A stretch of 31,994 bases of DNA, from NCBI GenBank assembly GCA_964403625.1, contig CAYOHA010000001.1, forward strand, positions 1 to 31,994. Reading direction: 5' to 3'. The position numbers and the translations under genes are program-made. The notes beneath the pieces are model-generated. The model ran no database searches. It was not told where the DNA came from and saw nothing but the letters and a program-made list of their open reading frames with translations. Shown here in pieces: positions 22,563 to 31,902 of the stretch; within the stretch, counting starts at the first letter, position 1, and the number at the start of each line of letters is the position of its first letter. This DNA is from an uncultured Dehalococcoidales bacterium. Lineage in GTDB: Bacteria; Chloroflexota; Dehalococcoidia; Dehalococcoidales; UBA2162.

Positions 22563-23129
22563 ATGAGATACTATTGCTTCATGAATACACCCCCAAAAAC
22601 AGGTGCTAATGATTCTCGCCATCTCGCCACCGTTCAGTATATCGATAATACGGGGAGGTTCCCGCGGGTTAGATTATTCTTCAGGCTGCTTACCTTTGCT
22701 GATACTCTTAATAAATATGCCGGCATAGAAGTAAGGGAAAAAGGTGATAACCGTACCGGACTAGCTGTTTTGCAGATTTTACTCAAATATCCGGATGGTA
22801 TCTCTCAGCAAGAGATAGCCAAGCAAACGGGTAGAACCAAGCAGGCAATTGTGATGGCGATTAACAAACTTGAGCAGCAAAACTACCTTCAAAGACGTTC
22901 GAATAGCTACGATAGAAGGATGAATTCCATTATTATTACCCAAGAGGGGATTGATCATCTCAACGAAGTGTTCCCCCACACTCTGGCCATGTGTGATAGT
23001 GTTTTATCATCTTTTAGTGATGAAGAAATCGATCAATTCATCACCCTCAGTGGAAAATTGACGAAACGGCTGTGGCAGCAGATCGAAGCTGAATCATCGG
23101 AATTTGAACAGCGTGTAGAAGAGGAATAA
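22563..23129 (+). CDS. MarR-family winged-helix regulator (start may be 22581 or later)
   Basis: 'GISQQEIAKQTGRTKQAIVMAINKLEQQNYLQR....DRR...I.IT..G'. Divergent from the molybdoenzyme operon. Confidence 0.9.
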   Translation: MRYYCFMNTPPKTGANDSRHLATVQYIDNTGRFPRVRLFFRLLTFADTLNKYAGIEVREKGDNRTGLAVLQILLKYPDGISQQEIAKQTGRTKQAIVMAINKLEQQNYLQRRSNSYDRRMNSIIITQEGIDHLNEVFPHTLAMCDSVLSSFSDEEIDQFITLSGKLTKRLWQQIEAESSEFEQRVEEE

Positions 23130-24044
23130 CCGAATATTCCCGTGCCCACCATCATGCCGGACTGTGCTTAAGATGAAGGGAAAAGGGGCAGGGTTCAGGC
23201 AGGTGGTGCAGGTTATATCAATTGTCTCCCCTTCTAGAAGTAGGCCTATATCTGATGCGCTGAGATCAACAGAGAGTCCGCGGCCGCACCTGTCGCAAGC
23301 GAAACGCCATGTACCTTGTAGTTCCTTCAGCGAATCCTTAAGGCCAGCCGCAAGTGCCCTTGCCTTGGAGCCGGCGTATTCTTTCCACTGCCCATCTTTC
23401 ATTAGTTCGAGGCGTTTTTCGGCCCCTGCCTGTACTCTCCTCTCAAATTCAGCGGTCACGCGGTGGTTTACCAGTGCATTAACCTCCTTAAGGTAGTAGT
23501 TCTTGAACCAGTCTGGCCACTGATCCCTAGCACCCAACATGGCATCTGCAACTTGCCTTGCGCTGGAATCAATGACCTTTGCTATCTCAGGGGGCCACTC
23601 AGAACCGTTAAGTACTTGTATCAGGCTCTCGTGAACCAGAGTCGGCATTCGGCTTCGCATATCCTTTTCTAGTGCTGCCAGGCATTCTTTTACCCTTCTC
23701 TCAATCTCGCCTTCCTCGGCATGGAGGAATTGGTCTCTTATCTCCTCCAAGGAGAGGTCGCCGCTGTCAGGAAAATTCACTTTAAATTCCTTTAGCGACA
23801 ACAGCTCCTTCTGGGCGTCATCGAGCCTACTGGCCAGCTCCCTAACCTCGCCCTCGCTTTTCGTGAGGCGTGAAGAAAGCTCGTTGTTCGTAGAAACTTC
23901 GCTTCCCAGTTCGGCTATCTTTTTCTTCAGCTGGGCTACTTCTGTTGCCAGACAATCCCTTTCCCGCTTGACCCGAGAGTAACGCCTCAGTGCCTCGAGT
24001 TCCTTTACGTACTTTTCCAGAACTTTAAATTCGTCCTTTATCAC
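23094..24044 (-). CDS. Hypothetical coiled-coil protein with C-terminal CxxC..CxxC zinc ribbon; tail probably junction-derived
   Basis: Heptad-rich N-terminus, CDRC...CTTC, and GGAGGTGA SD before GTG 24044. The 3' end runs 36 bp antisense into marR across the repeat at 23138-23165. Confidence 0.7.
   Translation of the reverse strand: MIKDEFKVLEKYVKELEALRRYSRVKRERDCLATEVAQLKKKIAELGSEVSTNNELSSRLTKSEGEVRELASRLDDAQKELLSLKEFKVNFPDSGDLSLEEIRDQFLHAEEGEIERRVKECLAALEKDMRSRMPTLVHESLIQVLNGSEWPPEIAKVIDSSARQVADAMLGARDQWPDWFKNYYLKEVNALVNHRVTAEFERRVQAGAEKRLELMKDGQWKEYAGSKARALAAGLKDSLKELQGTWRFACDRCGRGLSVDLSASDIGLLLEGETIDITCTTCLNPAPFPFILSTVRHDGGHGNIRLFLFYTLFKFR
23138..23165 (+). repeat. Imperfect direct repeat of the tRNA-Val 3' end/att junction (26973-27000)
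   Basis: 20/28 ungapped identities. Also shares the exact 9-mer gcccaccat (23144-23152 and 26982-26990) on a diagonal shifted by 3 nt. Confidence 0.5.
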
Positions 24045-25722
24045 TACTCACCTCCCCGACGAGCATCAGCAACGCCCAGATGAAGACATCTGCAAGCTCC
24101 ACCTCGGTGTATTCACCAATACTGTAGTATTTCTTGGTAATCTCCCGGGGCGGTCTCAGCTTCGGGTTGAGATTCTTACGGCACCAGGCGAGGCCTATCA
24201 TCAGATATTGCACCACGACCTGGAGACTTAAATCAGCCACCAGGCTGGAGATGGCCTCTTCGCTCAGGGGCAGTTTGACAAAATAGCGGGTGAACTTTAG
24301 CTCCTCTTCCAATTTACCCATCTCCGCCTGCGTATCACCCCACTTCCTGATGTCATCGTGGAGGCCACGACACAGCTTCTTTACCTCAGCCACTGCTGAA
24401 CTCCTCATGCTGTTGATCTGCTTAACTCCTGAATCCCTGAGGGAAGTGATTGACTGCCTTACTTTAGCCAGCTCACCCTGAAGCTCTCTAAGTGCTTGCA
24501 CCTTTTCCCCTAGCTCTTGTGCTACCCTGTCGAGTTCAGCCCTTCTTGCTGTTAGTGCCTTCTCAACACTGCTGAAATCCGCGACTACTTCTTCGAATGA
24601 TTCAGGAGCAACCCCAGCCGCGGTAAGCATTCTCTCATAGGAGACTATTGTCGGCGGTAAAACGCCCTTACGTCGCAGAGATTTTATCGCCGCTATTCCT
24701 TCAGCGATCTGTTCTGAGGTCAGCCCCAGCTTTTGAGCGAGCCCGGCTAGCGATTCCCTCTCTACCGTCAGGCTCTTGACTTCTTCGGAACGTTTTCCCT
24801 TGGTCGCCTCCATTCCAATGACGGCCTCATAGGTTTCGAGATATCCAAAGAATCTATTGACAGCCTCCCCTGTACCGTGCTTCTGCGCTATCTCACTCAG
24901 GCGGTCTCTTAGCCGGTTTAATTGATCCCGTGGAAAACCAATCTCATCCAGACCCCTTAGCGTCTCAGTCTTGTCGGCAACTTGCTTTTCCAGAGTCATC
25001 ATTCTTTCCTGAAGCTGGCTGGTTTCCTCTTTGAGCTTGCTCTTCTCGGTTTCAAGTTGAGCCATCTCCTCCTGGCACTGCTTGACTTGCTCCCCCAACT
25101 CTTGGATGCGATCCTCCTGCTCCTTTTCTTTCACTGCCATGGCATTCAGCCTGCCTTGAAGCCTGACAGACTCTGCTTCAAGGCGGTGGTTTGCTTGAGT
25201 GAGTTCCTCTCCCCTTCCGTGAAGTTTGGTCTCCTCAGCTCTCAGCTCTGCTAGCTCTACCCTCAGCCTCTCTAGCTCGGCAGAGGAGGTCCTGAGGCTT
25301 TCTAAGGTCTGCTCATAGCTAAGACCTTCTTTTTCCAACTTTGACAGTTTGCTTGCCGCCTGGATGATCTGGCTGCGGGAAAATTCTTCCTCGGGAACTG
25401 CTCGGCACATTCTTATCCATGATTCAAGATACGCTGGTTCTACACCCAGCCCGATGAGTTTCTTTAACAAGATGAAGAGGGAAGCAGCTTCAATGATAGT
25501 AATGCCTGCCTTGCGGAGACCAACCGTCAGTTCTCTGAGCTCGTTCACCAAATCAGTCACCTGTTCAAACTGGGGGAATTCTCCGACTCTGAGCGCCTCT
25601 ACTACTGCTGCCACACTTCCTTTTGCTACGCCTGTTTTCTCGGCGATATCATCGTAGGAAAAACCTTCGAAGTAGAGTTTTACCACCTCAAGCTTTCTGT
25701 CTAGAGTTATCTCCCTGCTCAC
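24025..25722 (-). CDS. Hypothetical protein: N-terminal HTH plus long coiled coil
   Basis: 'RKLEVVKLYFEGFSYDDIAEKTGVAKGSV' HTH and an extended Glu/Lys/Leu heptad region. AGGAGG lies 8 nt before GTG 25722 (the ORF track starts at 25740). Confidence 0.75.
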   Translation of the reverse strand: MSREITLDRKLEVVKLYFEGFSYDDIAEKTGVAKGSVAAVVEALRVGEFPQFEQVTDLVNELRELTVGLRKAGITIIEAASLFILLKKLIGLGVEPAYLESWIRMCRAVPEEEFSRSQIIQAASKLSKLEKEGLSYEQTLESLRTSSAELERLRVELAELRAEETKLHGRGEELTQANHRLEAESVRLQGRLNAMAVKEKEQEDRIQELGEQVKQCQEEMAQLETEKSKLKEETSQLQERMMTLEKQVADKTETLRGLDEIGFPRDQLNRLRDRLSEIAQKHGTGEAVNRFFGYLETYEAVIGMEATKGKRSEEVKSLTVERESLAGLAQKLGLTSEQIAEGIAAIKSLRRKGVLPPTIVSYERMLTAAGVAPESFEEVVADFSSVEKALTARRAELDRVAQELGEKVQALRELQGELAKVRQSITSLRDSGVKQINSMRSSAVAEVKKLCRGLHDDIRKWGDTQAEMGKLEEELKFTRYFVKLPLSEEAISSLVADLSLQVVVQYLMIGLAWCRKNLNPKLRPPREITKKYYSIGEYTEVELADVFIWALLMLVGEVSSDKGRI

Positions 25723-25816
25723 TGTTCTTGCCTCCTTCACCGCCTACGGTTTTACTCGGTCTGCTAGTCAAGCTAGCTGCCTAACTGAATGAACAACTGA
25801 ACAAAGTTTTGAACAT

Positions 25817-26752
25817 CTAGGTACTCCTAAGTTCTATCGTATTAGTCTCTTTCTCAATTACGCTATTATTTCGCTTCCCCCTTCTATACGCCAGTTTGAA
25901 GTCCATATTGTCTGCCGGAGAATAGCGACGGTGTGCCTCTTGAATACCACTTTGAGCCATGTTTACATAGATTCGAAGGACATCTAGTGTGGAATGCCCC
26001 ATCATCCTTTGGAGACTGAAGACATCGCCGCCGTTTCTTAAAAACCTGACGGCAGCAGAATGACGTAAAGTATGAGGTGAGCACCTGACTCCTTCTATCC
26101 CAGCTTTCCTGCCGTAATAGGTCATAATCTTCTCCGCCCTATCTTTGGTTAGCGGCCTACCATCCTTGGTGAGGAAGAGGAAGTCGTATTTAGCCATCGC
26201 TGGTTCGGGACGGCATCGGTTAATGTAGCGCCAGAGGAGGCGCTGAACTTGCTTACCTATCGGAATAAGGCGCTCCTTATTACCTTTACCTACAACCTTC
26301 AGCATACCCTCATCCAACCAGAGATTGCCAAGCTTTAGATTACAGAGTTCAGATATCCTAAGGGCCGTATCAAGCAAGGTCAGAATGATGATATAGTCTC
26401 GGTATCCCTCAGCGGTTCTAGTATCTATGGCATTGAGTAACCCCTGGAACTGGGAGTCGGAGAAGGCAGGTATAACCTTTCCTGGTGGTCGTGGAATTTT
26501 CACTCGTTCAAAGGGGTTACACTCTATGATATTTTCGGAGACAAGCCATGATAAAAAGATCCTGAGACTGCGGAGGTAACAGTTAATGGTATACCCCGAA
26601 AGCCCTCTATCCTGGGTATGGTTGAAACGGTGGCCGGAGAAGCACATCTTCTGTTGTAGATAGAGGATGAATGCTCTAATCTGGTGCTGAGTAATCTGAG
26701 TTGCATCGGTGCTTATTCCCTGTGAAGCAAGGAAATCGAGAAAGTAATGCAC
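25817..26752 (-). CDS. Tyrosine recombinase/integrase (XerC/D-like fold); coding frame extends upstream without a canonical start
   Basis: Complete catalytic set: DTALRISEL (R), GKGNKER (K), HTLRH, MMGH, RIY (Y). SAM-like N-terminal domain. Confidence 0.92.
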   Translation of the reverse strand: MHYFLDFLASQGISTDATQITQHQIRAFILYLQQKMCFSGHRFNHTQDRGLSGYTINCYLRSLRIFLSWLVSENIIECNPFERVKIPRPPGKVIPAFSDSQFQGLLNAIDTRTAEGYRDYIIILTLLDTALRISELCNLKLGNLWLDEGMLKVVGKGNKERLIPIGKQVQRLLWRYINRCRPEPAMAKYDFLFLTKDGRPLTKDRAEKIMTYYGRKAGIEGVRCSPHTLRHSAAVRFLRNGGDVFSLQRMMGHSTLDVLRIYVNMAQSGIQEAHRRYSPADNMDFKLAYRRGKRNNSVIEKETNTIELRST

Positions 26753-26872
26753 GCTATTAGTGACAATAGCGATAGCATTAGGGCTCTTTCCTTCAGTAGC
26801 AGCACAAAGCTGATAGCCCTGAAGCAGGCCTCTTATGTCGGTGTAAAAATTTAACGAAGCAAGAGGTCTACC

Positions 26873-26901
26873 TTTACAAAGCTGATTTTTGGGGGTAAAA
26901 T
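26873..26901 (+). promoter_or_regulatory. Sigma70 promoter for tRNA-Val
   Basis: TTTACA-17-TAAAAT, ending 12 nt before the tRNA 5' end. Confidence 0.7.
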
Positions 26902-26913
26902 AGATATGATTTC

Positions 26914-26989
26914 GGGCGGTTAGCTCAGTGGTTGGAGCGCTTGCTTCACACGCAAGAGGTCACAGGTTCAAGTCCTGTACCGCCCACCA
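26914..26989 (+). tRNA. trnV: tRNA-Val(CAC), CCA encoded
   Basis: Acceptor stem GGGCGGT/ACCGCCC, D-arm GCTC/GAGC, anticodon stem CTTGC/GCAAG with loop TTCACAC, T-arm ACAGG-TTCAAGT-CCTGT, ACCA end. 76 nt. Confidence 0.97.
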
Positions 26990-27774
26990 TACCGTACAGT
27001 AGGCAGAACTCCCAATCCTTCTTCCTCCTGGTCGTCCGGAAGTATCGGAAACGTGTATTTAATTCGCCCCTCATTCCCCGTGACCTTGATTTCCTTTACG
27101 AAGCTCTTGATAAATGCTTTCCTTTCCAGCAGGTCGCTGGTATCGATGAACTGATGCAAATCTTCAACGTATTTTCGTACCACCTCCGGACTTACTAACT
27201 CAATCTTATGTTGAGACATAAGACCATCAAGTTCGGATTTCCGTGTTAGCAACCGGTCATGCTGCACTCTTAGCTCCTGCAGACGCGGTTTTAGCAAATG
27301 AAATTCGATATTACCGTTCTCAATGGCATTGTAAAGATTACCCAACCGCTGTTCTACTCTGCCAATCTCACTGATAATGGTATCCATCTCATCCCTGAAT
27401 GAGCTTGAAGCAGCGTCCATCTCCTCATTAATTAAGTCGACCAGTTCGGACAAGTTCCCCGGGGTGAGAATATGTTCCTTGATTTTCGAGATCACCAGCC
27501 GCTCGAATTTAACACTGTTGAGGTAAGGAGTAGAGCACGCCCCTGCTCCCTTCTTCGTCAATGAGCCGCAAATATAGTATGAATACTTACCGCTTTTAGC
27601 ATCCAGCCCTATCAGTGCCTTACCGCAACAGCCGCACCAGGTTAGACCACTCAACAGAAATCTACTGGTTGCCCGTCTCGGATGCTGCTTCTTCGGCGCC
27701 CGATCTCCCATAAGTTCTTGTGTTTTATTAAAGACCTCCTTGCTGATAAGTGCCGGAAATACGTTTTCAACTCT
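26968..27774 (-). pseudogene. Large serine recombinase, C-terminal remnant (end of recombinase domain, Zn ribbon, coiled coil); catalytic N-terminus missing
   Basis: RVENVFPALISKEVF..Q, then LLSGLTWCGCCG...YYICG....AC, then coiled coil. An in-frame TAA at 27777-27775 caps the 5' end. The stop codon lies in the tRNA T-loop. Confidence 0.85.
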
Positions 27775-28036
27775 TTACAAACACGTGTATTTTACAAAAA
27801 AATTATATGACGGTATCGAGTTGGTCGCTAAAATAGAAAACGTGAACAGAAAAAAGGCAGCCGAGTTGCTGATGAAAGCCGGCCTGTCCAGCTATATGGG
27901 AGCGAAACTAACCGAATACATTAAAAACGATCAAGCTGCCAGAGAACAAAACCAAAAAATGAAAATGACTCGCTTCGTAATGATTTTGAGAAGATATGCC
28001 AGAGAACACGGCATGGATATTTCAAAAATTATTTGA
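27775..28036 (+). pseudogene. Small basic helical hypothetical protein, probably 5'-truncated and fused to recombinase antisense sequence
   Basis: The first 35 nt of ORF 27740-28036 are recombinase antisense with no SD. The remainder (YKHVYFTKKLYDGIELVAKIE..RKKAAELL) reads like a real small DNA-binding protein. Confidence 0.45.
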
Positions 28037-28133
28037 TGATGTTGCTACCTGGTTCGCAGGCTTTCCTCTTTAGGTGTTCGATGGCTTCTCGGTGATGATA
28101 GTACACAAGATGGCTTTTTGTGAGGTGAGAATA

Positions 28134-28162: not shown

Positions 28163-28636
28163 CACACTCACGTTTAACTGCTATTACACGTGAATTAAAT
28201 CTGGCGTATAATCCATGTTATACGCATTTATTCACAGGTTGATTATCCAACTACCTATTTGATAGCGAGGTTTGAACAATAAGTCATAAGGTAAAATTTC
28301 AAGAACTAGCTCGTTTATCACCATCCCCGAGGCAAGGAATTAAAATAAAAGTCTTTTTATCCAGCTAACATATCCTATAAAGACTTATTCTCTTGTTTTT
28401 CCACTTCTTAATGGACTATAATCAGGTACGTCCTCATAGTTCCCCGGGTTATCGGCCACCCGCTCCTGAGGTTAGAATGCTGGTAACTCTAACTTAACAA
28501 GTGGTATCCCTTCAGGGGGCAGGTCAAGTGTAACAAATACTGCGAGCAAGGCAGTAATACATGTAAAACCCATTAGTAACTCCACAAGGGAAAACTTAAA
28601 CCAGTTTTAGGAAATAGAAAACCAGGGGGCATAGTT

Positions 28637-29875
28637 ATGGCAACGAAAAAGAGCAATCAGGGTAAGGGAAGACTTCCCCCGGTTCTGAAGAGGTTTGAGG
28701 GAAATCCCATTCTTAGGCCAGAACCCAAACACTGGTGGGAGTCAAAAGCGGTCTTCAACCCAGCCGCCATCTACGAAGACAATAAGGTCCATATTCTATA
28801 CCGAGCGCTGGGGGATACTGACACCTCAGTAATTGGATATGCATCCAGCCTCGATGGATTTCACATTGACGAGCGGTTGGACAAACCTGTGTATGTGCCT
28901 CGGGAGCCATTTGAAGGTGTTGGTGCAATACGTCATACTGAGGCTAAGCTATCTGATAACTATACATCCGGAGGAAGTTTTTCCGGTGGGTGTGAAGACC
29001 CCAGACTGACCAGAATTGATGACAGGGTTTATTTAACTTATGTTGCGTATGATGGCTACAGTTCCCCCAGGATAGCATTAAGTTCAATACACATTAATGA
29101 TTTCCTTGGCAAAAATTGGAAATGGAAAAAGCCAGTCCTCATCTCACGACCAGATATTGTGGATAAAAATGCCTGCATCTTGCCGGAAAAAATAGATGGT
29201 AAATATGTCATCTTTCACCGGATTTTTCCCGACATTTTGATTGATTTCGTCGATGATCTAGATTTCGATGGTGAAGGAAGGTGGTTAGAGGGGCAGTTCA
29301 AAATACCGATCAGAGAATCAAGCTCTAGCTGGGATAGCCGTAAGGTTGCTGCTGGACCGCCACCGATGAGAACAAAAGACGGGTGGTTGTTCATCTACCA
29401 CGCTATTGATGATAAGGATGAATTCCGTTATAAGATGGGTGCGATGCTACTTGCTATAAAAGACCCCCCGAGAGTTCTGGCGCGTACCACACACCCCATT
29501 CTGGAACCTTCGGCACGCTATGAGAATGAAGGTTTGAAGTCAGGGGTAATCTATCCGTGCGGCGCTGTAATCTTGGATGACCAGCTATTTGTCTATTATG
29601 GTGGGGCAGATATGGTAGTGTGCGTAGCAACGGCAAAAATGAGCGAATTTATGTCACGGCTAAGCTACGAATGTGAACCGGTACAGGTTAGCGTCACAGT
29701 GAATCCGAGCGCAAATGTCACTATCAAAACAGAGGGACATATCCAGGGATACTGTGTTAAGTGTCATGCGAAGGCGGAGATAAAGAATCCTCACCATCTA
29801 ATTATGAAAAACAAAAGGCATGCAGTTCAGGGTATTTGTCCCAAATGCGGAACCAAAATGGTTAAGTTTGGATAG
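28637..29875 (+). CDS. GH130 glycoside phosphorylase/hydrolase with C-terminal DUF5679-like zinc-ribbon domain
   Basis: NPIL, FNPAA, GCEDPR, DKNA.ILPEKIDG....HR, WDSRKV..G.PP, YH, V.YPCG..., YYGGAD. Tail YCVKC...GICPKCGTKM. Confidence 0.9.
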   Translation: MATKKSNQGKGRLPPVLKRFEGNPILRPEPKHWWESKAVFNPAAIYEDNKVHILYRALGDTDTSVIGYASSLDGFHIDERLDKPVYVPREPFEGVGAIRHTEAKLSDNYTSGGSFSGGCEDPRLTRIDDRVYLTYVAYDGYSSPRIALSSIHINDFLGKNWKWKKPVLISRPDIVDKNACILPEKIDGKYVIFHRIFPDILIDFVDDLDFDGEGRWLEGQFKIPIRESSSSWDSRKVAAGPPPMRTKDGWLFIYHAIDDKDEFRYKMGAMLLAIKDPPRVLARTTHPILEPSARYENEGLKSGVIYPCGAVILDDQLFVYYGGADMVVCVATAKMSEFMSRLSYECEPVQVSVTVNPSANVTIKTEGHIQGYCVKCHAKAEIKNPHHLIMKNKRHAVQGICPKCGTKMVKFG

Positions 29876-29907
29876 AGTCAGGGTGAAATTATGAGGGTTT
29901 GATTTTT

Positions 29908-31902
29908 ATGACTGAAATAAGGCGTTCCGAAGAAAATCCCGTTTTGATACCTTTGAGTGAAAACACATGGGAGGCGGATGGAGCATTTAATGGCTGTCCG
30001 GTACGTGATGGCGGTAAGATTCACTTTGTTTATCGGGCGATTTCACTGCCTCAAAAGATAGCCGGTCATGAATTACCTCTGTCTACTGTTGGTTATGCTT
30101 TAAGCAATGACGGCATACACTTCAGGAACCGCCGTCAGTTCATCAAACCGGAGCACGACTGGGAGCAATTCGGTTGTGAAGACCCGCGTGTCACCAAAAT
30201 GGATGGTAAATTCTATGTCTTCTATACGGCACTGGCAACTTTCCCATTCTGTGCCGAGTGTATTAGAGTCGGCGTAGCCATTACTCGTGATTTCAAGAAG
30301 ATTGATGAAAAGCACCTGGTCACAACTTTCAACTCCAAGGCAATGTCTCTCTTTCCAGAGAAGATTGATGGTAAATATGCCATCGTTTTAAGCGTTAATA
30401 CTGATGTTCCGCCCACAAGAATTGCGGTTGCTTATTTTGACCGTGAGGAACAGATGTGGTCACCAACATACTGGGAAGGCTGGTACTCACACCTGAATGA
30501 TAGTGTTATTCCTTTGCAGAGGTCATCCAAAGACCATGTTGAAGCAGGCGCTCCGCCCATCAAAACCAAAGCTGGTTGGTTATTAATCTACTCATACATT
30601 CAGAGTTATTTTTCGCCGCCGGCGATTTTTGGTATTGAAGCGGCTCTACTTGACCTGTATGACCCGCGTCGGATAATCGCACGCACTGAAGCTCCATTGC
30701 TGGTGCCTCAAGAAGCCTACGAAAAATATGGCAAGGTGCCTAATATCGTCTTTCCAACGGGGGCAATGGTTAAAGATGGCACATTATATCTTTACTATGG
30801 CGCTGCCGACACGACCTGTGCCGTCGCCACCTGTAAACTGGACACTCTTCTGGAGGATATACTGGAGACAAGGATAAAGCAGATAAAGCTGGAGCGTTTC
30901 CCCGGCAATCCTGTAATTAAGCCCAACCCCAAACTTTCATGGCAAGCAAAAGCAGTTTTTAATCCGACTGCTCTGTACGAATATAGCAGAGTTCATCTTG
31001 CTTACCGGGCGATGTCTGAAGACAATACCTCCGTAATTGGGTTTGCCTCCAGCGCCGATGGATATAATTTTGACGACCAATCATCTGAGCCAATGTACAC
31101 CCCCCGTGAAGAATTTGAAGCTAAACTGGTGCCGGGCGGCAATTCAGGCTGCGAAGATCCAAGACTGACCAGAATAGATGATACGATTTATATGTTGTAC
31201 ACCGCCTTTAACGGTAGAAGTGACCCGCGGGTGGCATTAACCCAAATTTCCCTGGATGACTTTCTAACAAGGCGTTGGAACTGGTCACGACCCGTTCTGA
31301 TTTCGCCACCGAATTTGTCTGATAAAGATGCAGCTATTTTCCCCAAGAAAATCAAAGGCAAATATGCTATCCTGCATCGTTTAGGCACGAGTATCTGGCT
31401 GGATTTGGTGAATGATTTGAAATTTGAGGGCAATAAATGGCTCGGTGGGCATATTTTCATGAGTCCGAAAGACGAGTTGCCAGACACAGATAGACTCGGC
31501 ATCTCCGGACCACCGATTGAGACTAAATACGGCTGGCTCCTGCTTTACCACGCTGCTTCCAGAAAAACACAACCAATGACATATTATGTTTCGGCGGCTT
31601 TGCTTGATTTGAAGGATCCATCTAAAGTCCTTGCTCGTCGGAAAGTGCCCATCCTTGAACCGGAAACGCCTTATGAATTATATGGTCAGGTAAATAATGT
31701 GGTTTTTCCGTGCGGTGCGGCAATCATTGGTGAAGATCTGTTTGTTTTTTACGGTGGGGCTGATAGTGTCATTGGCGTTGCGACAATGAAAGTAGAGGAC
31801 CTGCTTAATAGCCTGATTACCTGGGGAGAAATTGGAGACGATGTGATAAAACTAGGCAAATTAAAATGGGGCACCTTCCGCTTCTCTCATTTGAGAAAGT
31901 AG
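29908..31902 (+). CDS. Tandem two-domain GH130 protein
   Basis: Two complete sets of NP/FN/GCEDPR/GxPP/VFPxG/YG.AD motifs. ATG 29908 has better SD spacing than TTG 29899. Confidence 0.9.
   Translation: MTEIRRSEENPVLIPLSENTWEADGAFNGCPVRDGGKIHFVYRAISLPQKIAGHELPLSTVGYALSNDGIHFRNRRQFIKPEHDWEQFGCEDPRVTKMDGKFYVFYTALATFPFCAECIRVGVAITRDFKKIDEKHLVTTFNSKAMSLFPEKIDGKYAIVLSVNTDVPPTRIAVAYFDREEQMWSPTYWEGWYSHLNDSVIPLQRSSKDHVEAGAPPIKTKAGWLLIYSYIQSYFSPPAIFGIEAALLDLYDPRRIIARTEAPLLVPQEAYEKYGKVPNIVFPTGAMVKDGTLYLYYGAADTTCAVATCKLDTLLEDILETRIKQIKLERFPGNPVIKPNPKLSWQAKAVFNPTALYEYSRVHLAYRAMSEDNTSVIGFASSADGYNFDDQSSEPMYTPREEFEAKLVPGGNSGCEDPRLTRIDDTIYMLYTAFNGRSDPRVALTQISLDDFLTRRWNWSRPVLISPPNLSDKDAAIFPKKIKGKYAILHRLGTSIWLDLVNDLKFEGNKWLGGHIFMSPKDELPDTDRLGISGPPIETKYGWLLLYHAASRKTQPMTYYVSAALLDLKDPSKVLARRKVPILEPETPYELYGQVNNVVFPCGAAIIGEDLFVFYGGADSVIGVATMKVEDLLNSLITWGEIGDDVIKLGKLKWGTFRFSHLRK

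Follow-up and report, generated by a model that had tools for sequence, protein, structure and literature searches.

A tRNA-Val(CAC) gene of a Dehalococcoidales bacterium as a probable attachment site of two unrelated integrative elements, one with a putatively self-splitting tyrosine integrase

In the Dehalococcoides islands at ssrA, the serine integrase DsiB is encoded by a gene whose 3′ end always overlaps the left attachment site, attL (McMurdie et al. 2011, PMC3146451). Among site-specific recombinases, only those of the tyrosine type were known to target tRNA genes (tDNAs) according to the Islander survey, in which a displaced 5′ tDNA fragment was recorded for 159 of 3919 islands (PMC4383910). 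The pTN3-like integrases of Thermococcales (Cossu et al. 2017), in the account given by a later review (PMC8371274), use the 5′ half of a tRNA gene as their host attachment site (attB), and the “suicidal” integrases of the SSV type (SSV1/2, pT26-2) have been stated to be exclusive to Archaea (PMC8371274, PMC7253208). Here, we describe a tRNA-Val(CAC) gene in a bacterium of the order Dehalococcoidales, which has part of a large serine recombinase gene on its 3′ side and the start-less frame of a tyrosine integrase on its 5′ side. The gene lies on a contig of 31,994 bp, which was analyzed at its full length (hereafter the window) and belongs to a metagenome-assembled genome (MAG) of 349 contigs with 82% completeness and 5.6% contamination.

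Two unrelated integrative elements probably share this tRNA gene as their attachment site, each using its own part, and the two parts nearly abut (Table 1). On the antisense strand of the gene, nucleotides (nt) 1–47 and 55–76, i.e., nearly the whole gene, are recombinase-coding. The original prediction had the last codons of the serine recombinase antisense to the tRNA end and the integrase frame beginning 9 nt past the recombinase stop on the same strand; both coordinates were correct, with an overlap of 22 nt and the stop at 26970–26968. The engagement of the tRNA from two sides, also predicted, is supported in a stronger sense than first proposed, as both ends appear to be genuine attachment sites. 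The rule that recombinase tails lie within tRNA genes, the recurrence of the layout and a rare cargo tie both recombinases to the tRNA by site-specific integration and not by mere adjacency.

In the scenario that we favor, an island would have been inserted on the 3′ side by a DsiB-like large serine recombinase of Dehalococcoidales, and a deletion would then have removed the catalytic half of the recombinase gene, fixing the island. On the 5′ side, the tyrosine integrase would carry the core of the attachment site of its element (attP), corresponding to tRNA nt 1–47 or the 5′ two-thirds of the gene, inside its own open reading frame (ORF). Integration by crossover within this core would split the integrase gene. 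Its C-terminal portion, Int(C), would remain beside the regenerated, functional tRNA gene, which would be driven by a promoter located between core and Int(C) and would have the element on its 5′ side. The N-terminal portion, Int(N), comprising ~58 amino acids (aa) and preceded by a Shine-Dalgarno sequence and ATG, would go to the far end, beside the displaced native 5′ tRNA fragment. Such a split would explain that the integrase frame lacks a start and remains open, antisense to the promoter and the tRNA 5′ part, as far as a TGA located one codon beyond the core, at a distance of 9 nt to the recombinase stop. A self-splitting bacterial integrase, which would account for this odd open frame, is the more interesting part of the locus.

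Table 1. Features of the tRNA-Val(CAC) locus; positions refer to the window.
Feature	Position	Strand	Basis or remark
tRNA-Val(CAC), intact, sole tRNA found by ARAGORN in the window	26914..26989	+	ARAGORN; Rfam RF00005, 72 bits
Predicted attachment core of the tyrosine element, tRNA nt 1–47, antisense ...PLACEASAPTTELTAR... of the integrase frame	26914..26960		Four far junctions
TGA closing the integrase frame	26960..26962	-	First two host-only tRNA bases (26961–26962); CCA (Pro) in far-junction and continuous forms
Int(C), start-less 3′ portion of the putatively split tyrosine integrase; stop 25819–25817	25817..26959	-	Pfam, orthologues
tRNA promoter TTTACA-N17-TAAAAT	26873..26901	+	Consensus scan, 10/12
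TTAACGAAGCAAGAGGTCT motif, candidate arm-type integrase site	26851..26869	+	Second copy in the P2 arm, ~40 nt past the core
Overlap of the recombinase tail (YGGRYRT*) with tRNA T-loop, acceptor stem and CCA, antisense, 22 nt	26968..26989		Same register to TGGTGG in 21 relatives
Large serine recombinase remnant: zinc ribbon, coiled coil and tail only	26968..27774	-	Pfam, alignment to relative
Deletion scar; recombinase homology ends at 27774	27775..28036		Alignment
Cargo of the tyrosine-integrase element, two genes	23094..25740	-	G191 homologues
tRNA-3′-end-like scrap (hairpin GGAATA/TATTCC + CGTGCCCACCA)	23122..23151	+	Just past the ~23150 end of G191 homology

Comparison with relatives places attP inside the integrase ORF, which appears to be divided into Int(N) and Int(C) upon integration. 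Far junctions consisting of upstream sequence, tRNA nt 1–47 and a shared arm (P2) were found four times, in the genomes G191 and G044 and on two metagenome contigs, the latter two in a pattern search aimed at free attP forms. At all four, the identity to the tRNA stops at the same base, 26960. The fragment of tRNA nt 1–47 in G191 and G044 lies on another contig and has an upstream sequence different from that of the functional gene. On the antisense strand of the far junctions, AAGGAGG-N7-ATG opens an ORF of 58 codons, 76% identical between families, which reads the tRNA part as PLACEAS..TTELTA, the same frame and peptide with which the integrase frame of the window starts. Continuous forms exist as well. 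An ORF running through Int(N), core, promoter and Int(C) in G161 encodes 411 aa, is of the Gly-tRNA type and has full domains; continuous ORFs of the Val type occur on two JGI metagenome contigs (L168 and L169, P0004) and one ENA contig (L170, P0007).

The motif GACGAAGCAAGAGGTCT flanks the core on both arms and may represent an arm-type binding site. Among viral contigs, none with the P2 arm was found. Immediately upstream of Int(N), a conserved basic protein of ~54 aa (...YYYLVE..REG.KV.Q..I.YLG...) is encoded (L150:1166–1327, L168:3840–4004); in the genome studied here, the same protein is encoded immediately upstream of a full-length serine recombinase gene (C10:20680–20826). It may be an accessory or directionality factor common to both recombinase families.

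The integrase frame of the window is open from 26959 down to 25820 after the TGA at 26962–26960, and coding is supported by homology from ~26848 onward. Its translation contains a Phage_integrase domain (PF00589, E-value 7e-36) and a SAM-like core-binding domain (PF13102, E-value 1e-6), and inspection reveals the R, K, HxxR and H...Y motifs. No ATG, GTG or TTG precedes the GTG at 26752, which lies within the SAM-like N-domain, ~26 codons past its beginning, and is replaced by GTA in G016 and G018. Nine of the ten Val-linked orthologues also lack a canonical start upstream, the exception being G191. At 26836–26834, the window has ATA, as do nine of the ten orthologues, and G191 has ATG; the notion that this ATA is a decayed ATG is weakened by its presence in these nine. 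The orthologous integrases are 61–77% identical to that of the window, and the ratio of nonsynonymous to synonymous substitution rates (dN/dS) of 0.11, calculated against G191 and G016, indicates purifying selection. Start-less integrases next to tRNA genes need not be pseudogenes, which calls for caution among annotators. Relatives of the integrase often occur as two or three tandem tyrosine recombinase genes of ~350–390 aa each (L081 in G040:C2, L082 in G161:C33, L083 in G103:C176, L132 in G191:C77 and L133 in G282:C302), reminiscent of recombinase-in-trio elements.

The promoter sits within a conserved block of ~75 nt upstream of tRNA-Val(CAC) (26839–26913), which is present in 80 of the 362 genomes of the order. 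A tRNA follows directly in 24 of the 29 block loci examined, and 21 of these 24 are Val(CAC); an integrase or a scrap of one diverges from tRNA-Val(CAC) at 10 of the 29, in several families. Within its own genome the block is absent from other tRNAs and occurs only at the two tRNA-Val(CAC) genes, a restriction that led us to reject the idea of a general tRNA promoter of this genome. The second of these genes (C150:3303–3378, L019) shows compensatory stem differences and keeps only the proximal ~50 nt of the block. A Leu-Arg-Val(TAC) cluster lies 934 nt upstream of it, and a decayed integrase fragment is close by; the gene may be an additional copy or derive from contamination. In another family, the block was found at 95% identity upstream of a tRNA-Gly(CCC) (L108, G232:C113:832–970), which exceeds the similarity at most Val(CAC) orthologues and hints that the block may move between tRNA genes along with these elements.

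The stretch to the left of Int(C) carries two cargo genes, one encoding a 571-aa protein with a helix-turn-helix (HTH) and a long coiled coil (24025–25740), the other a 316-aa protein with coiled coil and CxxC zinc ribbon (23094–24044). G191, which belongs to a different family, has homologues of both (80% and 72% identical) in the same order and next to an integrase and tRNA-Val(CAC); the sequence of genes there is tRNA, integrase (76% identity), a second integrase and the two cargo homologues, with no second copy of the core between the two integrases. The 316-aa protein was detected in only 2 of the 362 genomes of the order, its own and G191. A recurring site combined with a rare common cargo characterizes this stretch as a horizontally moving element that landed at the same place. 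On the metagenome contig L168, a protein distantly related to the HTH protein (29% identity) is encoded beside Int(N). The possibility that the 316-aa protein is a diverged serine recombinase was rejected, as its BLASTP similarity is limited to a tail of 10 residues. The ORF ends with ...ILSTVRH-D-GG and runs antisense through the tRNA-like scrap in the register of the recombinase tail ...TVRY-GG. Located at ~23150, the scrap resembles a junction of the serine-recombinase type on the outer border of the tyrosine element.

On the 3′ side of the tRNA, the overlap between recombinase tail and tRNA is not due to chance, because at 21 of the 29 homologous recombinase loci fetched, the gene terminates within the 3′ end of a tRNA gene, in antisense orientation. 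The tRNAs hit by these tails are Val-CAC, Val-TAC, Val-GAC, Ala-TGC, Ala-GGC, Glu-CTC and Met-CAT, and all 21 tails have the motif VL(P/S)xVxxGG, the GG of which comes from reading TGGTGG, a sequence antisense to the acceptor end and CCA. Homologues of the recombinase occur in 70 of 151 genomes of the order, mostly as open frames of 515–600 aa and with many short C-terminal scraps. The layout with the tail inside a tRNA gene is the norm of this family. That serine recombinases of this kind overlap their attachment site with their 3′ end had been given as background in the original prediction; the 21 relatives and the DsiB rule (PMC3146451) bear this out. In the same genome, a full-length paralogue, distributed over two contigs with an overlap of ~97 nt and 2 mismatches therein (C83:8446–9857 and C126:1–353; L002, L003), reads antisense through an entire tRNA-Ala(GGC) before its stop.

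Judging by its domain content, the serine recombinase in the window is a gene remnant, the C-terminal half, and not an enzyme. The ORF beginning with ATG spans 26968–27711 on the minus strand and ends with ...PTVRYGGRYRT*, while the frame from stop to stop extends to 27774. Pfam recognized only the zinc ribbon (PF13408, E-value 2e-12) in this ORF and gave no match to the Resolvase catalytic domain (PF00239), which holds the nucleophilic serine. The remnant is collinear with residues 270–535 of a full-length relative of 537 aa (67% identity), in which Resolvase occupies residues 23–169, Recombinase 199–294 and the zinc ribbon 309–368. Only ~20 residues of the Recombinase domain (PF07508) are left ahead of the zinc ribbon, and residues 1–269 of the relative had no tblastn match anywhere in the window. 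With the catalytic half lost, the island would be immobilized.

Beyond the scar follows an unrelated ORF of 98 aa on the plus strand (27740–28036) that matches neither Pfam nor PHROG. These two databases also provided no function for Int(N), its 54-aa neighbor and the 316-aa protein. The DNA behind the remnant contains this ORF, a transposase scrap and GH130 genes; an integration module of the DsiA type (small serine recombinase DsiA, ParB, Mom, pseudo-tRNA) was not found there, and no direct repeat of the tRNA 3′ end exists in the window at ≤3 mismatches. The transposase scrap (28381–28497), located between the recombinase remnant and the GH130 genes, consists of 38 codons of an rve-type C terminus (...YNQVRPHSSPGYRPP...). 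Coverage of the bin 28216–28349 in public runs was 20–450 times deeper than that of its surroundings, suggesting a repeat. The two GH130 genes (28637–31902) are located downstream of the tRNA in possibly integrated DNA. A DUF5679 zinc-ribbon domain is fused to the C terminus of the first, and the second comprises two GH130 modules.

Another contig of the MAG (C20) contains a 39-nt copy of the 3′ part of the tRNA, reaching from the anticodon loop to the discriminator base. Its T-arm is identical to that of the tRNA in the window, it has no encoded CCA, and it adjoins the core gene rsgA. This suggests that the copy may be the displaced native tRNA 3′ end and that the DNA from 26990 to the end of the contig and on to C20 was integrated. 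The junction on C20, the sole candidate for the far end of the island, carries the same 33 nt including the recombinase stop codon. If it were the far junction of the island, the recombinase tail would be unchanged on excision, unlike what the original prediction gave for Dehalococcoides islands, since the 33 identical bases include the stop. No synteny with relatives was found for the tRNA flanks or the flank on C20.

A serine recombinase or a scrap of one is present on the 3′ side at 4 of the 29 block loci. Both recombinases occur together at only one of them, in G173, where one contig carries tRNA-Val(CAC) together with a full serine recombinase and a scrap of the integrase, and an integrase was found at none of the 29 surveyed serine-recombinase loci. 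Such rare double occupancy fits two independent systems that use non-overlapping parts of one gene, and we regard the two-sided occupancy as a rare coincidence of these systems. In the window, the tRNA has a relic on either side, both of them probably immobile.

Several observations weigh against this scenario. This MAG (82% complete) yielded neither the Int(N) exon nor a displaced 5′ fragment, and the homology to G191 ends at ~23150. The element in the window is either truncated or continues on unassembled DNA; the copy in the window may be truncated, or the split model may not apply to it. The continuous ORFs of the Val type (L168, L170) join integrases that are truncated after 44–72 Int(C) residues and may be internal junctions of tandem arrays instead of free attP. 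The block is found upstream of tRNA-Val(CAC) also in genomes that lack the integrase (G010, G053, G171 and others), so that promoter donation is evident only in cases where a different sequence precedes the displaced fragment; for the genome studied here it is presumed. On the serine side, the fragment on C20 begins at the anticodon loop, as does the one in the complete genome G027, where a repeat of like extent marks a tyrosine-integrase island at Val(TAC), and it may stem from another element. No repeat >14 nt was found within 58 kb at intact serine-recombinase islands in three complete genomes. Finally, no contig across the tRNA was among those listed from four public runs.

An alternative would be an ordinary, unsplit integrase with a non-canonical start (e.g., ATA 26836–26834), the tRNA and its promoter being a conserved neighbor or cargo of the element and the 58-aa ORF an independent small gene, such as one for a directionality factor, that runs into the attachment site. 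The truncation of the integrases joined in all Val-type continuous ORFs agrees with this, and so do the ATG that G191 has where others have ATA, the in-frame GTG just upstream of the SAM domain in Gly-type paralogues and the second tRNA-Val(CAC) on C150, expected if the copy in the window were cargo. However, we consider this explanation unlikely. The ATA falls on a conserved hydrophobic position (I/L/M) of helix 1, with nine of ten orthologues devoid of a canonical start, and the 58-aa ORF and Int(C) always keep a common frame across the core, uninterrupted by a stop in G161, L168 and L170. Moreover, the frame closes exactly at the first host-only bases, and the displaced 5′ fragments from four unrelated contexts all terminate at one base, an outcome that cargo tRNAs would not yield. 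We lean, by a modest degree, towards the view that a Dehalococcoidales clade of PF00589 integrases has converged on the design of the archaeal “suicidal” and pTN3-like integrases: core and tRNA promoter would lie in the 5′ part of the ORF, integration would remove the start and the 58-aa exon and replace the tRNA 5′ part and probably its promoter, and the tRNA would here also be the target of a serine-recombinase island.

An assembly chimera, in which two genomes or two tRNA-Val(CAC) loci were joined at the conserved tRNA, would be conceivable in a MAG of 349 contigs with 5.6% contamination and two tRNA-Val(CAC) genes. The original prediction had named an arrangement unique to this contig and without support from spanning reads as the sign of such an artifact. 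The first part does not apply, as G173 has the same three-part layout on one contig; the second stands insofar as the missing bridging contig is concerned. In the public runs, one piece covers 26647–26960 and the next begins at 26994, and the tRNA, which is common to many organisms, is covered ~100 times more deeply than its flanks. Yet four runs from four studies contained both flanks with 0–3 differences and at like depth (~2–8), the C20 fragment of the same MAG has a T-arm variant identical to that of the tRNA in the window, and the composition is even across the tRNA, without a jump, all of which makes a chimera very unlikely. We give even less credit to a functional coupling, the cross-talk of the original prediction, in which transcription from the serine-recombinase side would pass antisense through the tRNA into the integrase and bring about mutual or tRNA regulation; no evidence of it was found, and no RNA run was listed for 25800–28100. 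In its favor, the interval from the tRNA to the coding part of Int(C) offers this gene neither a promoter nor a start, the recombinase remnant contains a weak sigma-70-like site on the minus strand (27335–27308), and a split archaeal Int(C) can be expressed according to a review (PMC8371274). But the recombinase gene has lost its 5′ half and with it the native promoter, the sigma-70-like match (9/12) is one of 7 found against 3.6 expected, and the co-occurrence of both recombinases at 0 of 29 serine-recombinase loci and 1 of 29 block loci argues against a selected partnership.

If the two-element interpretation is right, a single gene of 76 nt can serve two mechanistically different integration systems via separate sub-sites, and a “native” tRNA gene can be a mosaic of host and element DNA. 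tRNA-Val(CAC) would then be a two-sided insertion hotspot in Dehalococcoidia, whose ecologically important genes travel on such islands. Self-splitting integrases are an archaeal speciality in the reviewed literature (PMC8371274); a bacterial clade with the same behavior but another protein family would make the exit paradox of such elements testable in a second domain. Serine recombinases that aim at many tRNAs are documented by the tails described above, contrary to the older view that only tyrosine recombinases do so (PMC4383910).

Compared with known systems, the serine side is, as far as can be read from the sequence, a decayed member of the DsiB-like kind with tRNA targets. It resembles DsiB in the CcrB-like recombinase of ~540 aa, the 3′ end antisense in the target RNA gene, the same bacterial order, and the tandem and decayed islands downstream of the target. 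It differs in that the target is a tRNA (Val-CAC; in relatives Val-TAC or Val-GAC, Ala, Glu and Met) and not ssrA, that the copy in the window is a half-gene, that the six-gene integration module (DsiA and others) is not in the window, and that no 20-bp direct repeat was found for intact relatives. With the corresponding class of the Islander survey, the tyrosine side shares an element on the 5′ side of a regenerated tRNA gene and a displaced 5′ fragment at the far end; the survey gives a class statistic and describes neither a split integrase nor a case in which a serine recombinase uses the 3′ end at the same time. The IntP/IntX proteins of myxophage Mx8 (Tojo et al. 1996, cited in PMC4383910) also involve a bacterial tyrosine integrase ORF that extends across attP at a tRNA gene, so that integration alters the protein; in that description, the C terminus is exchanged and the start is kept, whereas here an N-terminal exon with Shine-Dalgarno sequence and ATG would be removed. 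SSV-type integrases correspond in having attP within the integrase ORF and in the final location of Int(N) at one end of the element and of Int(C) at the other, but they mostly use the 3′ part of tRNA genes and belong to another protein family. The pTN3-like integrases, which appear to be alike in architecture, have, according to the review (PMC8371274), an integrase gene that spans attP and is split on integration, and a restored tRNA expressed from sequence on the element side. These belong to the archaeal SSV family (PF16795), unlike the bacterial proteins described here, for which Pfam gave PF00589 and SAM-like N-domains only, both in the window and in the 411-aa form of G161. As the protein families are different, the likeness to pTN3 is one of design and not of family.

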